Source of the DNA: Candidatus Moranbacteria bacterium UBA4824
GTDB taxonomy: Bacteria; Patescibacteriota; Minisyncoccia; Moranbacterales; UBA2206
DNA: 64,000 bases
NCBI GenBank assembly: GCA_002400405.1
Contig: DHFM01000046.1
Coordinates: 11,722-75,721 of the forward strand
Reading direction: 5' to 3'
Position numbers and translations under genes: made by a program. This document shows positions 7,378-64,000 of the stretch, piece after piece. Below the pieces are notes generated by a model. That model ran no database searches, was not told where the DNA came from, and saw only the letters and a list, made by a program, of their open reading frames with translations. Position 1 is the first letter of the stretch; each line of letters starts with the position of its first letter.

Positions 7378-7379
7378 AA

Positions 7380-7445
7380 TTTACGAAAATACGAATCTAG
7401 CGAAAGTACGAATTCGTAATTTAGTTTAATTCGTATTTTCGTAAA
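7380..7445. repeat. Repeat family A copy (66-bp element with perfect 17-bp terminal inverted repeats tttacgaaaatacgaat/attcgtattttcgtaaa and central palindrome tacgaattcgta) separating the two VirB4 ORFs
   Basis: Terminal inverted repeats confirmed by reverse-complementing. Near-identical copy at 63549..63614. Related TACGAAT arrays at 21939, 37855 and 52368. Confidence 0.65.
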
Positions 7446-7468
7446 TAATAAAACACAAAAAAACATCC

Positions 7469-9292: not shown

Positions 9293-9784
9293 ATGTACGA
9301 TACCCAAAAAAAACAAGAGTTAGAAAATAATCAGCAAGAAGCTCGTGAGCAAAAAGAAGCCCAGAAAAAAGAACAAGCCGAAAAAAATGCCTTGTCTTTT
9401 GAAAATTTAAAAAAACCGAAAAAAAAATCTCGCTTTTCTCAAATTAAAAAATCCGATCCGGTTTTTGCTGTTGCCTTTATGGCCGCAGGACTAAAGGACT
9501 TGCTTGACCTTTTTCAAGCCACAGGAGTGGGGTATGCTATAGTGATTATTATGACTATTTTGATTTTTATCTTTATCGGATTTATGATAATGATCGGGGT
9601 TTCTATGGGCGGAGGTGGGGGGATAAATATACTGCTGATGCTTTTTGGCGGAACCGCCGTGGAAATTCTCCCTGGGATAAGTTTTTTGCCAATGACTATG
9701 GGATTAGTAGCTATGATATATTTATCAGTTTTGAAAAAAAGAAAAAAGAATGCTCAAAAAATTCAAGAACAAAACTACGCCTAA
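9293..9784 (+). CDS. Small membrane protein (charged N-terminus, C-terminal TM helices), T4SS-associated
   Basis: 163-aa ORF 7 nt after virB4. K/E/Q-rich N-terminus, then 2-3 hydrophobic helices with a Gly-rich loop. Confidence 0.4.
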   Translation: MYDTQKKQELENNQQEAREQKEAQKKEQAEKNALSFENLKKPKKKSRFSQIKKSDPVFAVAFMAAGLKDLLDLFQATGVGYAIVIIMTILIFIFIGFMIMIGVSMGGGGGINILLMLFGGTAVEILPGISFLPMTMGLVAMIYLSVLKKRKKNAQKIQEQNYA

Positions 9785-42733: not shown

Positions 42734-43483
42734 ATGATTACTCCAACTCCAAAAGATGCTGAGCATAAAGCATGGATGTTTCGTCTACTAGGCGCGCTAT
42801 TTGATGACGCTTTTTTATCTAGCGTTCTATTTTTCAAAGGCGGAACTTGCGCAGCTATGCGCGAACTTCTAGATCGATTTTCAGTGGATCTTGATTTTGA
42901 TTATATTAGCGAAAAAGGAGAAATCAAAAAGGTTCAAGAAAAAATGGAAGAAATTTTTCAAAAACTCGGTTTGGAGATAAAAGACAAAAGTCGAAATGTT
43001 CCGCAATATTTTTTGAAATATCCAACCACTGCAGGTGGAAGAAATACGCTAAAAATAGACATCTGCTTTCCTGTACCGCAATTTAATCAATATGAAAGCG
43101 CACAACTTTCTGAGATTGATCGCATTGTGAATTGTCAAACAGTTGAAACGATGATGGCTAATAAGCTAATAGCGCTCATTAATCGATTTGAAAAAAACGG
43201 CCATATTGCTGGTCGAGATGTGTATGATGTCCATTATTTTTTTTGGAATGGTTTTCGTTATGACGCGAAAATCATAGAGGATATAAGAAAATGTTCGGTG
43301 GAAAAATTCTTCGAGAATTTGGTGGTTTTTGTTGCTGACAAAATAAATCAAGAAGTTATCGATCAAGATCTCAATATGCTTTTGCCCAACGACAAATTTC
43401 AAATGATGCGAAAAATTCTCAAGCAAGAAACTCTAATGATGCTCAAAGACGAGTTGGCAAGGATAAAGAATGGAAAGTTATAA
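42734..43483 (+). CDS. AbiEii-family nucleotidyltransferase toxin (DUF1814)
   Basis: FFKGGTCAAMRELLDRFSVDLDFD nucleotidyltransferase motif. ATG at 42734 preferred over the ORF-track start 42653. Confidence 0.6.
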   Translation: MITPTPKDAEHKAWMFRLLGALFDDAFLSSVLFFKGGTCAAMRELLDRFSVDLDFDYISEKGEIKKVQEKMEEIFQKLGLEIKDKSRNVPQYFLKYPTTAGGRNTLKIDICFPVPQFNQYESAQLSEIDRIVNCQTVETMMANKLIALINRFEKNGHIAGRDVYDVHYFFWNGFRYDAKIIEDIRKCSVEKFFENLVVFVADKINQEVIDQDLNMLLPNDKFQMMRKILKQETLMMLKDELARIKNGKL

Positions 43484-48680: not shown

Positions 48681-48879
48681 AAAAAATTTAAAAATTCAAA
48701 GAAGGTATCCGAAAAGTTGAGCTTTAGGGTGGAGCCTAAACTTTTCAAAAAGCTCAACTTTAGAGGAGTAAAATTCTATCAAAGCTAAATGTTTTGTGGG
48801 AAAGTTTTTAGGAGATATTTAGTTTTAATGGAAGGGGAATAAATAAAACAAAAAATTCTTTAAAAAATAGGGAGGGAGT

Positions 48880-56908: not shown

Positions 56909-57128
56909 TCTCCTTATTTTGAGTTTTGTAGCCCGTTAGTGGGCGCTTTGGAATTGTTAATGTGCATTGTTAAGATTTTTATTTTCTGATTTTTATCCTA
57001 ACAAAGCATTATATATTAAATTTCATAAATTGTCATTAATAAAGACTTGCTTATTGTATAAGCATAAACTATTTGCTTTATTTCAAGCAATATGCTACAA
57101 TAATAATGTTGACATAATTGACGACACT

Positions 57129-57872
57129 ATGAAAAATGAACTACAAAAAGAGCTTTTAGCAACAGGACTAAGCGAAAATGAATCGGCTATATATTTATCT
57201 GCTTTGGAGATGGGCGAGACAACCGTGAGTCGACTGGCGAAAAAGGCTGGAGTTAAGCGAACCACGGCCTATTTAGTGCTTGAATCTTTGAAGGAAAAAG
57301 GCTTAATCAGTTCACTCAAAAAAGAATCGGCCTCAGTTTTCTTTGCCGAAGATCCAAAAAAACTTCACGATATCCTAGAAGAACGCCAAGAAAAAATTGA
57401 CAAAATAATGCCACAACTCTTAGCGTTTACAAATATGATTGATAAGAAACCAGAAATCCGCTATTTTGATGGGGATGAAGGAATCAAAGAGGTGTATCGT
57501 GATTCACTAAAATATCCTGATTCAGAGATACTAACTTGGTATGCCCAAAATTTTTTCACTCATTTTGAGGAAAATTTTTTCTTGGAAGAATATATTCCCA
57601 AAAGATTGAAAAAGAAAATTTGGGTGCGCGCGATTTTGCCAGATAGCAAGCTTATTCGCGAATGGATCAAGAATGATCAAGAGCATCTTCGAAAATCAAA
57701 ATTAATATCAGCAGAAAAATATCCAATTTCAATTGAATTAAACGTTTACGGAAAAAATAAGGTAGGAATTGTATCTTATGAAGAAGAATTTGCCATCATA
57801 ATTGAAAGTCAAAAAATTCACAGCAGTCTAAAGAGTATTTTTGAGGCTATGTGGGATTCATGGCCGGAATAA
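57129..57872 (+). CDS. TrmB-family transcriptional regulator
   Basis: N-terminal wHTH (LSENESAIYLSALEMGETTVSRLAKKAGVKRTTAYLVLESLKEKGLI) plus C-terminal TrmB-like domain. ATG 57129 preferred over ORF-track 56967. Confidence 0.6.
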   Translation: MKNELQKELLATGLSENESAIYLSALEMGETTVSRLAKKAGVKRTTAYLVLESLKEKGLISSLKKESASVFFAEDPKKLHDILEERQEKIDKIMPQLLAFTNMIDKKPEIRYFDGDEGIKEVYRDSLKYPDSEILTWYAQNFFTHFEENFFLEEYIPKRLKKKIWVRAILPDSKLIREWIKNDQEHLRKSKLISAEKYPISIELNVYGKNKVGIVSYEEEFAIIIESQKIHSSLKSIFEAMWDSWPE

Positions 57873-60628: not shown

Positions 60629-60654
60629 CTTTCCTAAAGCGAAGCTTTAGGAAG
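60629..60654. repeat. REP-like palindrome copy 1 (ctttcctaaagcgaagctttaggaag)
   Basis: Perfect hairpin. Starts 2 nt after the polA stop. Copies at 61896, 62128 and 62602. Confidence 0.65.
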
Positions 60655-60676
60655 GTAAAATAGCAGAAGCATATTT

Positions 60677-61417
60677 TTACGGTTCTATAATCTTACCACT
60701 GTTCCAAATTATTTCAAAAATTTGTTTCTGCACTCTGGCAACTTCTTTATCTTCAATTACCATTCCAAATTCATCTTTGTAATTAACAATATAAACTTTT
60801 TCAGCTCCGATTATCATTTCTATTTCAGAATGAAATGTATCTTTGGGTAATATTCTGGTTTCTCTTAATTCATTTTTATCTTTTTTCTTTATTTCTAGTA
60901 TCTCATTACTCATTTCTCCAATAACCCTCACTTTTTTTCCAATATCCTTTCTTCTTTTGATATAATCATCACTAAGTTTTTTCTCGTCCGCTGAAATAAA
61001 ACGAGGAGTAGTAAAGCCGACCAATTCCGATTCGCTTGTTCTAAGCGTAGCATTATTTATTTCCTCAATCCCTCTTTTGCCTTCATAATAATATACTTTT
61101 GGCTTTTTTTCTTTTAAATTATTTATGGCGTTTAATTCTGGAATAGATTTCTTCAATTCATCAATTTTCTGTTCTTCCATTTTTAAAATTTTTTCAGGTG
61201 CCTCGGCAGAAAAATAAGTCTTCCTTCCTTTTTTTGATTGTTTAATAAAGCCTTTTTGTATGAGGTCTTTAACGATATCATAAAAATATGTTCGGTGCAG
61301 TCCTGTTTTCTCAGTTATTTGACTAGCTGTGGACACGCCTAATTCCAAGGAAGCTAAATATATATCTGCTTCTTTTTGATTTAATCCAATTTTCTCAAAA
61401 ATATTTCGCATGCTCAT
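60677..61417 (-). CDS. TrmB-family transcriptional regulator (paralog of 57129..57872)
   Basis: wHTH (LNQKEADIYLASLELGVSTASQITEKTGLHRTYFYDIVKDLIQKGFI) plus C-terminal domain. Same architecture as the other TrmB gene. Confidence 0.6.
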   Translation of the reverse strand: MSMRNIFEKIGLNQKEADIYLASLELGVSTASQITEKTGLHRTYFYDIVKDLIQKGFIKQSKKGRKTYFSAEAPEKILKMEEQKIDELKKSIPELNAINNLKEKKPKVYYYEGKRGIEEINNATLRTSESELVGFTTPRFISADEKKLSDDYIKRRKDIGKKVRVIGEMSNEILEIKKKDKNELRETRILPKDTFHSEIEMIIGAEKVYIVNYKDEFGMVIEDKEVARVQKQIFEIIWNSGKIIEP

Positions 61418-61521
61418 ATTTGTCGTAAATTATAATACTAAACTTATTTTAACATAGTGGCTTAAATAAGTCAATAAATGCTTAGTTAGTTAATATATCC
61501 TAAAATTTTTGTCTTTAAATA

Positions 61522-61550
61522 TTGACTATGAATATTGATAGTGTTATATT
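61522..61550 (+). promoter_or_regulatory. Sigma70-like promoter (TTGACT-17-TATATT) for the 62-aa mini-gene
   Basis: ttgactatgaatattgatagtgttatatt. Confidence 0.35.
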
Positions 61551-61632
61551 TTTTGAAACTTAGATAGGTTCTATTAACTAAGTTTTCTTGTTCCTTAGAA
61601 AATGACATTAAATCAAAAAAAGGAGAATTAAA

Positions 61633-61821
61633 ATGAAGAAATTCAAGATTAGCATCAGTGTTTACAATTCGGAAGCGGACAAGTTTTTCTCATGCTCCGA
61701 AGTTGTGGAGGCGAATGATCTTAAGGATGCGAGAATGAAGGGGGGTGAGGCGATAGAACGTCTCAAGAAAGAAAATCCCGCTCGCCATTGCACAATAGGT
61801 CAGATAGCGCCTCAAAAATAG
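61633..61821 (+). CDS. Small hypothetical protein (62 aa) in a self-contained promoter-SD-ORF-terminator unit
   Basis: AAGGAG Shine-Dalgarno 8 nt upstream. GC elevated (about 43%). Canonical terminator follows. Confidence 0.35.
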   Translation: MKKFKISISVYNSEADKFFSCSEVVEANDLKDARMKGGEAIERLKKENPARHCTIGQIAPQK

Positions 61822-61846
61822 CTTTATTCCCCGTCTGGTATTTAGT

Positions 61847-61883
61847 GGCCTCTTTGAAAAGTAATATCAAAGAGGCCGTTTTT
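61847..61883 (+). terminator. Rho-independent terminator
   Basis: ggcctctttga-aaagtaatatc-aaagaggcc followed by gttttt. Confidence 0.65.
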
Positions 61884-61895
61884 AAATTTTGTAAT

Positions 61896-61919
61896 CTTTC
61901 CTAAAGCTCGGCTTTAGGG
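61896..61919. repeat. REP-like palindrome copy 2 (divergent: ctttcctaaagctcggctttaggg)
   Basis: Sits 13 nt upstream of the RAYT gene. Confidence 0.55.
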
Positions 61920-61931
61920 TACAATTGCATT

Positions 61932-62600
61932 ATGAGAAAAATAGAATTTGCTAATGAGGAATATTATCATATATTTAATCGCGGAGTAGATAAGCGCGAA
62001 ATATTTTTAAGCTCTCAAGAATACGAGAGATTTATTTTGGCGATGCAATTATTAAATGATAAAGAAGGCGGACTAATGATCAAATGGAGGGATTACAAAA
62101 AAGCCAATCCAACCGCTAAATTAGAGTCTTTCCTAAAGCGAAGCTTTAGGAAGAGGGAACCGCTGGTTGAGATTATTGCATATTGTCTAAATCCAAATCA
62201 TTATCATTTTATTTTGAAACAAATTGAAGATAATGGTATTGAAAGGTTTATGCATAAAATTGGGACAAGTTATACAAAATATTTTAATAAGAAAAATAAG
62301 CGAAGCGGAGTTTTGTTTCAAGGAGTTTTCAAATCAGTTCATATTGATTCCAATGAATACTTATTGTATCTTTCGGCTTATGTGAATAAAAATAATTTTA
62401 TTCACAGATACAATAAAAATGATGACTGGTCATATTCCAGTTTATTGGATTATTTAGGTAAGAAAAAAAGCGGATTTTTAAATATGAATGCAGTTTTAGG
62501 ACAATTTAAAAGTATAAATGAATATGAAGAATATTTGAAAAATAATGCTTTATATATGAAAGAAAAAAAGGAAATGGAGGAATATTTAATTGAAGAATAA
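61932..62600 (+). CDS. IS200/IS605-like Y1 (HuH) transposase of the REP-associated (RAYT) type
   Basis: N-terminal YHIFNRG motif. HuH motif HYHFIL. Downstream Tyr region (YLSAYVNKNN). Flanked by, and internally carrying, the REP-like palindrome. Confidence 0.6.
   Translation: MRKIEFANEEYYHIFNRGVDKREIFLSSQEYERFILAMQLLNDKEGGLMIKWRDYKKANPTAKLESFLKRSFRKREPLVEIIAYCLNPNHYHFILKQIEDNGIERFMHKIGTSYTKYFNKKNKRSGVLFQGVFKSVHIDSNEYLLYLSAYVNKNNFIHRYNKNDDWSYSSLLDYLGKKKSGFLNMNAVLGQFKSINEYEEYLKNNALYMKEKKEMEEYLIEE
62128..62153. repeat. REP-like palindrome copy 3, in-frame inside the RAYT CDS (encodes SFLKRSFRK)
   Basis: Identical 26-mer to copy 1. No stop codon introduced. Confidence 0.65.
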
Positions 62601-62601
62601 C

Positions 62602-62627
62602 TTTCCTAAAGCTTCGCTTTAGGAAGA
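62602..62627. repeat. REP-like palindrome copy 4 (loop inverted, i.e. opposite orientation) between the RAYT stop and the mutM start
   Basis: ctttcctaaagcttcgctttaggaag. Confidence 0.65.
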
Positions 62628-63548: not shown

Positions 63549-63614
63549 ATTTACTAAAGTACGAATCGAGCGAAAGTACGAATTCGTAATTTAGTTTAAT
63601 TAGTATTTTCGTAA
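63549..63614. repeat. Repeat family A copy (near-identical to 7380..7445), ending 1 nt before the next ATG
   Basis: agcgaaagtacgaattcgtaatttagtttaatt(a/c)gtattttcgtaaa shared with the copy at 7380. Confidence 0.65.
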
Positions 63615-63615
63615 A

Positions 63616-64000
63616 TATGACTAAAAAACAAAAAATAATTATTGCTGTTCTTGCGATAGCAATCGTGGCGGGGGGATTTTATTTTTTCAAAAAAACAAAT
63701 ACTTCCAATGTTAAACAAATAGATCTAAATAACACAAAGTCAAATTCAGGCCCAACTAATACTGGGCCAGTGAGTCCAATTTCGGGGTTAAATTGTGAAG
63801 ATTGGAATCGCCGTCCCGTAGCGGTGATGCAACCATCAGACGTGCAAGCTCGTCCGGCCGCTGGTTTTTCCGAGGCGGATATGGTGATTGAACTTCCTGC
63901 TTATACATCTTCCAATACGCGTCTTTTAGGTGTTTATATTTGTAATATTCCTAAAGAAGTCGGCGCCATTAGAAGTGCTCGCCATGATCACATTGCTTTA
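63616..64000 (+). CDS. DUF3048 (YerB-like) lipoprotein/membrane-anchored protein, 5' partial (continues beyond window)
   Basis: N-terminal TM (IIIAVLAIAIVAGGFYFF). RRPVAVMQPSDVQARPAAGFSEADMVIELPAYTSSNTRLLGVYICNIPKEVGAIRSARHDHIAL matches the DUF3048 N-terminal domain. No stop before the window end. Confidence 0.5.

Follow-up and report, generated by a model that had tools for sequence, protein, structure and literature searches.

A 64,000-nt stretch of the genome of Candidatus Moranbacteria bacterium UBA4824 (GCA_002400405.1; contig DHFM01000046.1, positions 11,722–75,721, forward strand), referred to below as the window, contains a gene for a Y1 HuH nuclease accompanied by short DNA hairpins, one of which lies inside the coding sequence and is translated in frame. 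This locus is probably REPtron-like, consisting of a low-copy, vertically inherited gene resembling those of REP-associated tyrosine transposases (RAYT) and of its cognate short repetitive extragenic palindrome (REP) hairpin, in Moranbacteria of the candidate phyla radiation (CPR; Patescibacteria). The in-gene hairpin is an ancestral trait of the clade at a fixed site (codons ~63–75, before the HuH strand) rather than damage to the gene, and the hairpins inside and outside the gene co-vary across unrelated hairpin sequences and codon phases. The original prediction for this DNA had proposed a REP/RAYT system, and this reading was upheld, since the palindromes flank the gene, co-vary with it between genomes, and have dispersed extragenic copies.

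The open reading frame (ORF) 61932–62600 scored 32 bits with the Pfam family Y1_Tnp (PF01797), above the 23-bit cut-off. The encoded protein contains the motifs NHYH, FQ, and YVNKNN and a tail of ~70 aa; H90, H92, Y150, N154, and the SS pair of the tail were invariant in the alignment of homologs. The tyrosine motif is Y150-V-N-K-N154-N155, in which the Asn at +4 is invariant and another invariant Asn at +5 takes the place of the Pro of the class-2 motif Y---NP, whose Asn is a metal ligand. Foldseek comparison of an AlphaFold2 (AF2) model built from 26 sequences (predicted local distance difference test, pLDDT, 73; predicted template modeling score, pTM, 0.73) revealed as the best match 4ER8_A, the E. 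coli RAYT in complex with a REP hairpin (E 1.4e-3, prob 1.0), followed by the IS608 and ISDra2 TnpA proteins, while a sequence search of PDB with the Y1 protein found no match. The earlier assignment to Y1 HuH transposases is thus supported by the Pfam score, the best fold match, and the invariant catalytic residues. The ratio of nonsynonymous to synonymous substitution rates (dN/dS) relative to related genes was 0.06–0.14; the Y1 gene is intact and under strong purifying selection.

The hairpin core has the structure TTCCTAAAGC-NNN-GCTTTAGGAA, that is, 23 nt with a perfect 10-bp stem and a 3-nt loop, and is framed by asymmetric flanks (5′ CT, 3′ G). Four matches to this core were found in the window, all within 2 kb, and none in 100 dinucleotide-preserving shuffles; no further copy was present anywhere else in the window. 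The exact 26-mer CTTTCCTAAAGCGAAGCTTTAGGAAG occurs at 60629–60654 and 62128–62153. The locus had been described as carrying a 26-bp perfect palindrome four times in 2 kb; the number of copies was correct, but the palindrome is a 10-bp stem with a 3-nt loop. Folded as single-stranded DNA (ssDNA), the three perfect copies had energies of −8.6 kcal/mol and the degenerate upstream copy −6.6 kcal/mol, with z-scores from −3.8 to −5.3. The copy at 62601–62626 has the same CT...G flanks as the other copies, and its loop alone is flipped, so that the opposite orientation ascribed to it does not follow. Among homologs, the loops were seen in both complementary forms at all three positions (upstream, internal, and downstream). 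Loop orientation was therefore rejected as a marker of element orientation, since the loops flip independently of the flanks. The hairpin behind polA occupies the same place in the related loci L004 and L102 and is decayed in L007.

An in-gene hairpin at a fixed ancestral site

Homologous loci came from three sources: exact look-up of proteins, GTDB genomes scanned with the hairpin pattern, and metagenome contigs searched at the protein level. The resulting set comprised 80 distinct Y1 genes with 48%–100% identity, of which 77, 74, 73, or 72 were used in the counts given below. A database search revealed 3,646 relatives; the best 120 of them are 62%–90% identical, mostly 220–226 aa long, and come from Moranbacteria, Parcubacteria, and other Patescibacteria. 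At E ≤ 1e-30, the family comprises 766 clusters at 50% identity.

The 222-aa ORF reads through the hairpin unbroken, in agreement with its predicted in-frame translation as SFLKRSFRK. This segment aligns without gaps to the consensus FLKxxFRK of the homologs, with F67 and R73 invariant. For a census of hairpin positions (perfect stem of ≥ 7 bp, loop of 3–7 nt, 30-nt bins along the gene), hairpins centered at gene nt 180–240 were recorded in 62 of the 77 genes, 49 in the bin 180–210 and 13 in the bin 210–240. The other bins mostly contained zero to three hairpins each, with one secondary bin at nt 450–480 (15/77). The hairpin at nt 180–240 was present in most family members, down to ~48% identity. 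Within it, the window agreed with L043 or L009 at 100% of third-codon positions, compared to 54%–60% in the remaining gene, where these positions are saturated. About 17 members encode a whole inverted doublet in frame, resembling REPINs (REP doublets forming hairpins). The fixed site tolerates any palindrome-encoded peptide, from ~8 to ~17 residues.

These data contradict the earlier view that the gene was recently colonized by the palindrome and interrupted by a 9-aa insert: the homologs are of about the same length and align without gaps, the hairpin is found family-wide, and the gene is under purifying selection. The comparison with intact homologs that had been proposed found no insert-free homologs within the clade. 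Since nothing is interrupted, the question of whether an interrupted RAYT is still active is the wrong one, and annotators should not call such genes "interrupted transposases." Local duplications were observed at the site in two relatives. In L129, gene nt ~199–230 encode FLNFLKLRFRK with repeated TTCCTAAA, and in L186 a tandem hairpin doublet with a GGCGCC spacer occupies nt ~213–250, which suggests that rearrangement is ongoing at the in-gene hairpin.

A palindrome within a gene might also arise by chance or as a by-product of codon usage, here from the conserved FLK..FRK peptide in an AT-rich genome. Another palindrome of the Y1 gene may be of this kind. Located at 62382–62405 just after Tyr150, it has the structure GTGAATAAAA-ATAA-TTTTATTCAC with a 10-bp stem, encodes the conserved VNKNNFIH, is present in 15 of the 77 genes, and is probably a by-product of the conserved peptide and AT-rich codons. 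For the internal hairpin such an origin has practically no likelihood. Across the family it is the palindromy that is conserved and not the peptide, the rare codons CTA, CGA, and AGG are fixed with third positions 100% conserved, the same nucleotide sequence recurs in noncoding DNA on both sides of the gene, and the covariation of the stem described below is significant. A chance or codon-usage origin is thus refuted by peptide variability, noncoding recurrence, and covariation.

Co-variation of the in-gene and flanking copies

The hairpin at the hot spot varies widely across the family, with both arms changing together and the peptide changing accordingly: TTCCTAAAGC/GCTTTAGGAA, TTTCTAAAGC/GCTTTAGAAA, TTCCTAAAGG/CCTTTAGGAA, and TTCCTAGAAC/GTTCTAGGAA, as well as the further variants TTCCGAAGG/CCTTCGGAA, TTCCTAACAT/ATGTTAGGAA, and GACAAGAG/CTCTTGTC. 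Mutually unrelated hairpins, such as TTGGACAC/GTGTCCAA, CCCGAAGC/GCTTCGGG, CGACGGGAG/CTCCCGTCG, and ACTTGGGAAT/ATTCCCAAGT, each recur upstream, inside, and downstream of their own gene. When matching was defined as an exact word of ≥ 10 nt common to the in-gene segment and a 60-nt flank, 58 of 74 genes (78%; median 18 nt) shared such a word with the flank preceding the ATG and 54 of 72 genes (75%; median 16.5 nt) with the flank following the stop. Among control gene segments, the proportion was 4%–5% and the median 7 nt. In 31 in-register hairpins, 96.5% of cells pair and eight of the ten stem pairs show double-sided changes, a result reached by none of 500 shuffles; in slid registers, the same sequences pair at 26%–69% only.

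The spacing is regular as well. Whatever its sequence, the upstream hairpin is typically separated from the ATG by 11 nt, and the downstream hairpin typically starts 1–10 nt after the stop, lying within ~30 nt of it in most homologs. The three-part layout (upstream, inside, and downstream) is kept in homologs from different genomic contexts and recurs, with a further hairpin sequence, in the divergent representative P0150 (E 2e-53). In the distant relative P0237 (E 1e-43; locus L199; 273 aa), a hairpin was found upstream of the gene and inside the 3′ end of the ORF (L199 3727–3770, gene nt 727–770), where the palindrome gives rise to a Gly/Ser/Asp-rich C-terminal extension.

Since the in-gene copy matches the flanks across lineages, it appears to have been overwritten or homogenized by the same process as the external copies and would thus be a real substrate in vivo. 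Point mutation cannot plausibly convert one palindrome into an unrelated one matching the flanks, and a random-mutation path between unrelated palindromes inside a reading frame is implausible; for this reason, we infer in-frame overwriting. The agreement of in-gene and external copies from lineage to lineage thus provides indirect evidence that REPs are replaced or homogenized in vivo, and the in-frame copy is informative on how RAYTs copy REPs.

The internal palindrome could instead be a passive passenger, derived from a single ancient in-frame REP insertion into a tolerant loop and subject to occasional gene conversion, with no function and no involvement of the enzyme. Many proteins are documented to contain in-frame REPs and Rickettsia palindromic elements (RPEs) in tolerant loops (PMC3733652, PMC6006769), the encoded peptide is highly variable, and its place in the model, after alphaA and before the HuH strand, is a family-specific region of moderate confidence. 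A passenger would nevertheless be expected to decay or be lost, yet a perfect stem is kept at one spot in ~85% of the 77 diverged genes. Moreover, unrelated hairpins have replaced it, in other codon phases, as doublets, and with matching flanks, and gene conversion would not be expected to act so efficiently on tracts of ~20 nt shared by short, unlinked repeats. We consider passive carriage rather unlikely. A selected role as a cis-element is a tentative possibility: the in-gene hairpin would be a heritable "master" copy that ensures co-inheritance of enzyme and target, and/or an autoregulatory sensing or nicking site acting together with the promoter copy. If true, the clade records repeated wholesale swaps of the DNA target of a HuH enzyme, written in the enzyme's own reading frame, and offers a natural series of matched enzyme–hairpin pairs for studying the evolution of ssDNA-hairpin specificity in CPR bacteria.

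A mechanism for the REPtron-like system can be proposed from what is known of the family. The TnpAREP proteins of E. coli and other bacteria perform REP cleavage and strand transfer on ssDNA (Corneloup 2021, PMC8266576). By analogy, the Y1 protein would recognize the hairpin in ssDNA, cut beside it using Tyr150 and a HuH-bound metal, and rejoin the strands. Hairpins may thereby be copied or replaced at a low rate in extragenic DNA, with the internal copy being overwritten or homogenized like the external ones, and the downstream and solo copies at gene ends would resemble classical REPs. Because the upstream copy sits in the putative promoter, abutting the −10-like box 6 nt from the ATG, binding or extrusion of the hairpin there could autoregulate the Y1 gene.

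Dispersed copies, inheritance, and sequence context

In a scan of 8-kb stretches of the GTDB species set with the pattern TTCCTAAARCNNNGYTTTAGGA, 105 stretches matched, nearly all from metagenome-assembled genomes (MAGs) of Moranbacteria or Parcubacteria, whereas ~17 were expected by chance according to our own estimate. The hairpin is thus not confined to one locus, a point on which the original prediction had depended. The number of exact-stem matches per MAG was 1–10, which is a lower bound as the + strand only was scanned. Of the relatives found, P0001 is among the two closest; its genome has four hairpins at the locus, and further matching stretches lie on other contigs of the same MAG. 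A Y1 homolog was present in only ~13 of the 105 matching stretches. Of 120 hairpin copies, 105 were outside long ORFs, compared to 20% of random positions, and many dispersed copies follow a stop codon at a distance of 2–18 nt or immediately precede a start codon. Given this extragenic location and the frequent occurrence at gene ends, the hairpins are repetitive extragenic palindromes of low copy number. Some copies were found inside long ORFs other than Y1 homologs (L062 7306, L099 2967, L018 1193, and L056 1555–1601); these may be in-frame REPs in other proteins, or the ORFs may be spurious.

In the window, mutM directly follows the Y1 gene, as it does in L004, L007, L112/L132, L129, L093/L120/L121, and L043 (Y1 ~69%–90% identical), while more distant members occupy other genomic contexts. 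Where one MAG contains paralogs, these have diverged from each other, and each carries a hairpin variant of its own. Judged from these sequence data, the Y1 gene behaves like a RAYT gene (domesticated, vertically inherited, low copy) and not like an insertion sequence (IS). The ~730-bp hairpin–gene–hairpin unit is indeed similar in size and layout to an active IS200-like element, in which one Y1 gene is framed by subterminal hairpins. In that case, the flanking hairpins would be its ends and the solo hairpins its footprints or miniature derivatives. The different contexts in more distant genomes and the presence of two paralogs in some MAGs are in line with such an element. However, the position upstream of mutM is conserved, the paralogs within MAGs are not near-identical, most hairpins are solo and far from any Y1 gene, the tyrosine motif is Y---N (class 2, RAYT-like) instead of the Y---Q of IS200 transposases (PMC6006769), and the best fold match is RAYT rather than IS608 TnpA. 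An active IS is therefore very improbable. An IS110-family transposase gene was observed in the P0001 genome (L004 8429–9547; Y1 90% identical) between the TrmB-like and Y1 genes, near the upstream REP. REPs are known IS targets according to literature cited in PMC3733652.

Alternatively, the hairpins could mainly be RNA or transcription signals selected by the host (terminators, mRNA stabilizers, stems sequestering the ribosome-binding site, or pause sites within ORFs) in which the Y1 protein is uninvolved. Their location just after stops or just before starts is compatible with this, one copy is terminator-like on the minus strand, and such secondary roles are known for classical REPs (PMC3733652). 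In addition, the 3′ arm TAGGA(G/A) resembles a Shine-Dalgarno (SD) sequence, and mutM starts 7 nt after the core of the downstream hairpin. The SD-like stretch AGGAAG of this 3′ arm lies 5–10 nt before the mutM ATG (62633) and may serve as the SD sequence of mutM. On the other hand, the terminator scan scored the 62603 copy alone, on the minus strand only, and the T-tract is absent from the other window copies and from most copies in general. Transcripts probably do not include the upstream copy, which borders on a −10-like box located 6 nt from the ATG. At every position, loops of either complementary form are found, and the hairpin is lineage-specific and tracks one particular gene, which is needless for an RNA signal. 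An Rfam search found no matching family and one sub-threshold snoRNA match. RNA signaling as the main role is thus improbable; a secondary, exapted role of this kind is compatible with the data.

Several observations weigh against reading the locus as a REPtron. The hairpin copy number is far below that of classical REPs. The protein passed the Y1_Tnp cut-off but missed that of the NCBIfam equivalog NF047646 (REP_Tyr_transpos; 29.5 vs 80 bits), so that the profile search suggested with the original prediction gave a split result, and the AF2 model is of moderate quality (pLDDT 73). About 11 of the 77 genes, for example, L149, have no perfect hairpin of ≥ 7 bp at the hot spot. The distant P0237 (L199) has no hairpin at nt ~200; the site at nt ~200 is therefore regarded as a trait of the clade. 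Comparison of the relatives' loci found no clean pair of filled and empty sites that would demonstrate mobility or define the cut site. In L102 and L042, polA, the post-polA hairpin, and mutM are kept and the Y1 gene is absent, with the interval rearranged and no readable boundary. For the L035/L025 hairpin upstream of the homolog of window position 43472, no alignable empty site was found in the window. Processing of the hairpin by the enzyme of this family is proposed by analogy with TnpAREP of E. coli and other bacteria. Recognition of strand and orientation is unexplained because there is no GT[AG]G foot and the palindromic stem is perfect, without a bulge. Finally, the homogenization could be ordinary gene conversion and not RAYT-catalyzed exchange.

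The features of the locus are listed in Table 1. The last base of the upstream hairpin (3′ arm, 61920) is the first T of the −10-like hexamer TACAAT. A TATAAT-like hexamer ending exactly 6 nt before the ATG was found in 26 of 73 homologs and is rare at other offsets. The TACAAT box was missed by a consensus promoter scan of the locus for lack of a −35 match, and the case for the −10 box rests on the count of offsets across homologs. This arrangement suggests that the Y1 transcript is leaderless or near-leaderless, with the upstream hairpin in the promoter spacer, and that leaderless transcription is common for this Y1 gene family in CPR bacteria.

Table 1. Positions of the Y1 gene, hairpin copies, and putative promoter element in the window
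Feature	Position	Strand	Description
RAYT-like Y1 HuH nuclease gene, 222 aa	61932..62600	+	HuH H90-Y-H92 (62199-62207), catalytic Tyr150 (62379-62381), N154, SS tail motif S169/S170
In-frame cognate REP hairpin	62130..62152	+	Loop GAA; codons 67-74 (F-L-K-R-S-F-R-K); end of alphaB region, 16 residues before HuH
Upstream REP copy	61898..61920	.	Degenerate: loop TCG, 3′ arm GCTTTAGGGT (ends GGGT), effective stem 8 bp; ends 11 nt before ATG
Downstream REP copy	62603..62625	.	Loop TTC; starts 2 nt after Y1 stop
Solo REP-like hairpin	60629..60654	.	Core 60631-60653; loop GAA; directly 3′ of polA stop, between convergent polA and TrmB-like genes
−10-like hexamer TACAAT	61920..61925	+	Ends 6 nt before Y1 ATG; putative promoter element, from sequence
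Degenerate REPIN-like inverted doublet	48708..48764	.	Related hairpin variant with 5-nt loop, AAAGTTGAGCTTTAGG ... AAAGCTCAACTTTAG; from fold and sequence comparison

A related palindrome had also been noted at ~48700–48770, and it is indeed present as the degenerate doublet of a related hairpin listed in Table 1. Its variant with the TTGAG/CTCAA loop is the cognate hairpin of the homolog L140, and the element resembles a REPIN in decay that belongs to a sister REP family. The window also contains an unrelated kind of palindromic repeat (~68 nt; TTTACGAAAATACGAATCTAGCGAAAGTACGAATTCGTAATTTAGTTTAATTCGTATTTTCGTAAAT) at 7379–7446 and 63550–63618, which is present in L007 at 9577–9663; one copy directly follows the stop of mutM. 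This repeat shows ~90% conservation in a related genome, has no obvious enzyme in the window, and could be another family similar to REPINs or to miniature inverted-repeat transposable elements (MITEs).

Other features were observed around the Y1 gene. Paralogous TrmB-family regulators at 56967–57872 (+) and 60677–61417 (−) bracket polA; in the relative L102, the second paralog is inverted and a different 191-aa ORF is present. A 62-aa ORF at 61633–61821, assigned to no Pfam or NCBIfam family, was also called in relatives. Behind it, at 61848–61880, a GC-rich stem (GGCCTCTTTGA...TCAAAGAGGCC) and a T-run have the shape of a classical terminator and closely precede the promoter-proximal REP.

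Comparison with known systems

In-frame REPs inside RAYT genes are already known from TnpAY1 subclass 2.4 (PMC6006769), and the phenomenon as such is not new. The supplements of PMC6006769 contained no CPR taxa, and our literature search found no paper that connects Y1 transposases with the CPR. What is new is the unusually regular arrangement of promoter, in-frame, and post-stop copies. RAYT/REP systems, characterized mainly in Proteobacteria, Cyanobacteria, and Bacteroidetes, would thus extend to the ~1-Mb genomes of CPR/Patescibacteria, where they form a large family. The dozens of matched protein–hairpin pairs could be used in specificity studies and in HuH tag engineering.

REPtrons are reportedly RAYT (TnpAREP) genes flanked by cognate REPs, as is said to have been described by Nunvar in 2010, by Bertels and Rainey in 2011, and by Ton-Hoang in 2012. 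The Moranbacteria locus resembles them in the Y1 HuH fold, the HuH and Tyr-xxx-Asn motifs, the low-copy vertical gene, and the gene-flanking hairpins that are also dispersed extragenically and co-vary with the gene. It differs in the lack of a GT[AG]G foot (the flank consensus before the stem is C-T-T, with no GTAG or GTGG), the short perfect 10-bp stem with a 3-nt loop, ~1–10 copies per genome, and Y---NN instead of Y---NP. The CPR host, the precise spacing to the ATG (~11 nt, fused to the −10 box) and to the stop (~1–10 nt), and the third hairpin copy inside the ORF are further differences.

The TnpAY1 proteins have been sorted into 12 subclasses, and their REPtrons described, by Quentin, Siguier, Chandler, and Fichant (2018, PMC6006769); we compared motifs by eye with Table 1 of that paper. 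In subclass 2.4 (Bertels group 4), in-frame REPs inside tnpAREP are a feature unique to the subclass; the insertions are of variable length and lie mostly between HuH and Tyr, in the beta3:alphaC loop (PMC6006769). Its members, from Cyanobacteria and Bacteroidetes, have long GT[AG]G or "double-foot" REPs, the motifs NH[IFV]H/WQ/YIxNNP, and no C-terminal tail domain (PMC6006769). As in this subclass, cognate REPs occur here within the RAYT coding sequence without breaking the frame and also flank the gene, and the encoded segment is variable and peripheral. In contrast, the site is fixed at codons 67–74, before HuH (residues 90–92), the REP is short and footless, and the motifs, compared by eye, are NHYH/FQ/YVNKNN plus the SS pair of the tail. 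The closest subclass by motifs is 2.1 (Bertels group 1; TIRYT), which is reported to lack associated REPs and to have a C-terminal helix-turn-helix (HTH)/DnaA-like domain (PMC6006769). The likenesses, again judged by eye, are NH[YF]H, FQ rather than WQ/WE, the SS tail, and a length of ~220–240 aa; the differences are the presence of cognate hairpins and the C-terminal HTH/DnaA-like domain, which was not detected by the Pfam search.

With IS200/IS605 elements, the locus shares the subterminal hairpins at both ends, but not the Y---Q motif or near-identical copies, having instead Y---N, a syntenic position, and diverged paralogs. The window hairpins also differ from intrinsic terminators, which have a GC-rich stem and a T-tract on the transcribed strand. 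The rolling-circle HuH initiators encoded by phiX174 gene A and pT181 repC have their nick site inside their own gene. They are comparable in that the DNA target of a HuH enzyme is embedded in its own coding sequence; however, their targets are replication origins of autonomous replicons, and no sign of replication initiation was seen here. In-frame palindromes in protein genes are represented by Rickettsia RPEs and intragenic REPs (De Nocera et al. 2013, PMC3733652), which, like the hairpin described here, are translated in frame within functional proteins and tolerated in loops. Whereas those elements are scattered in unrelated genes, the host gene of the Moranbacteria hairpin is that of its presumed own enzyme, and the site is conserved across hundreds of clusters.

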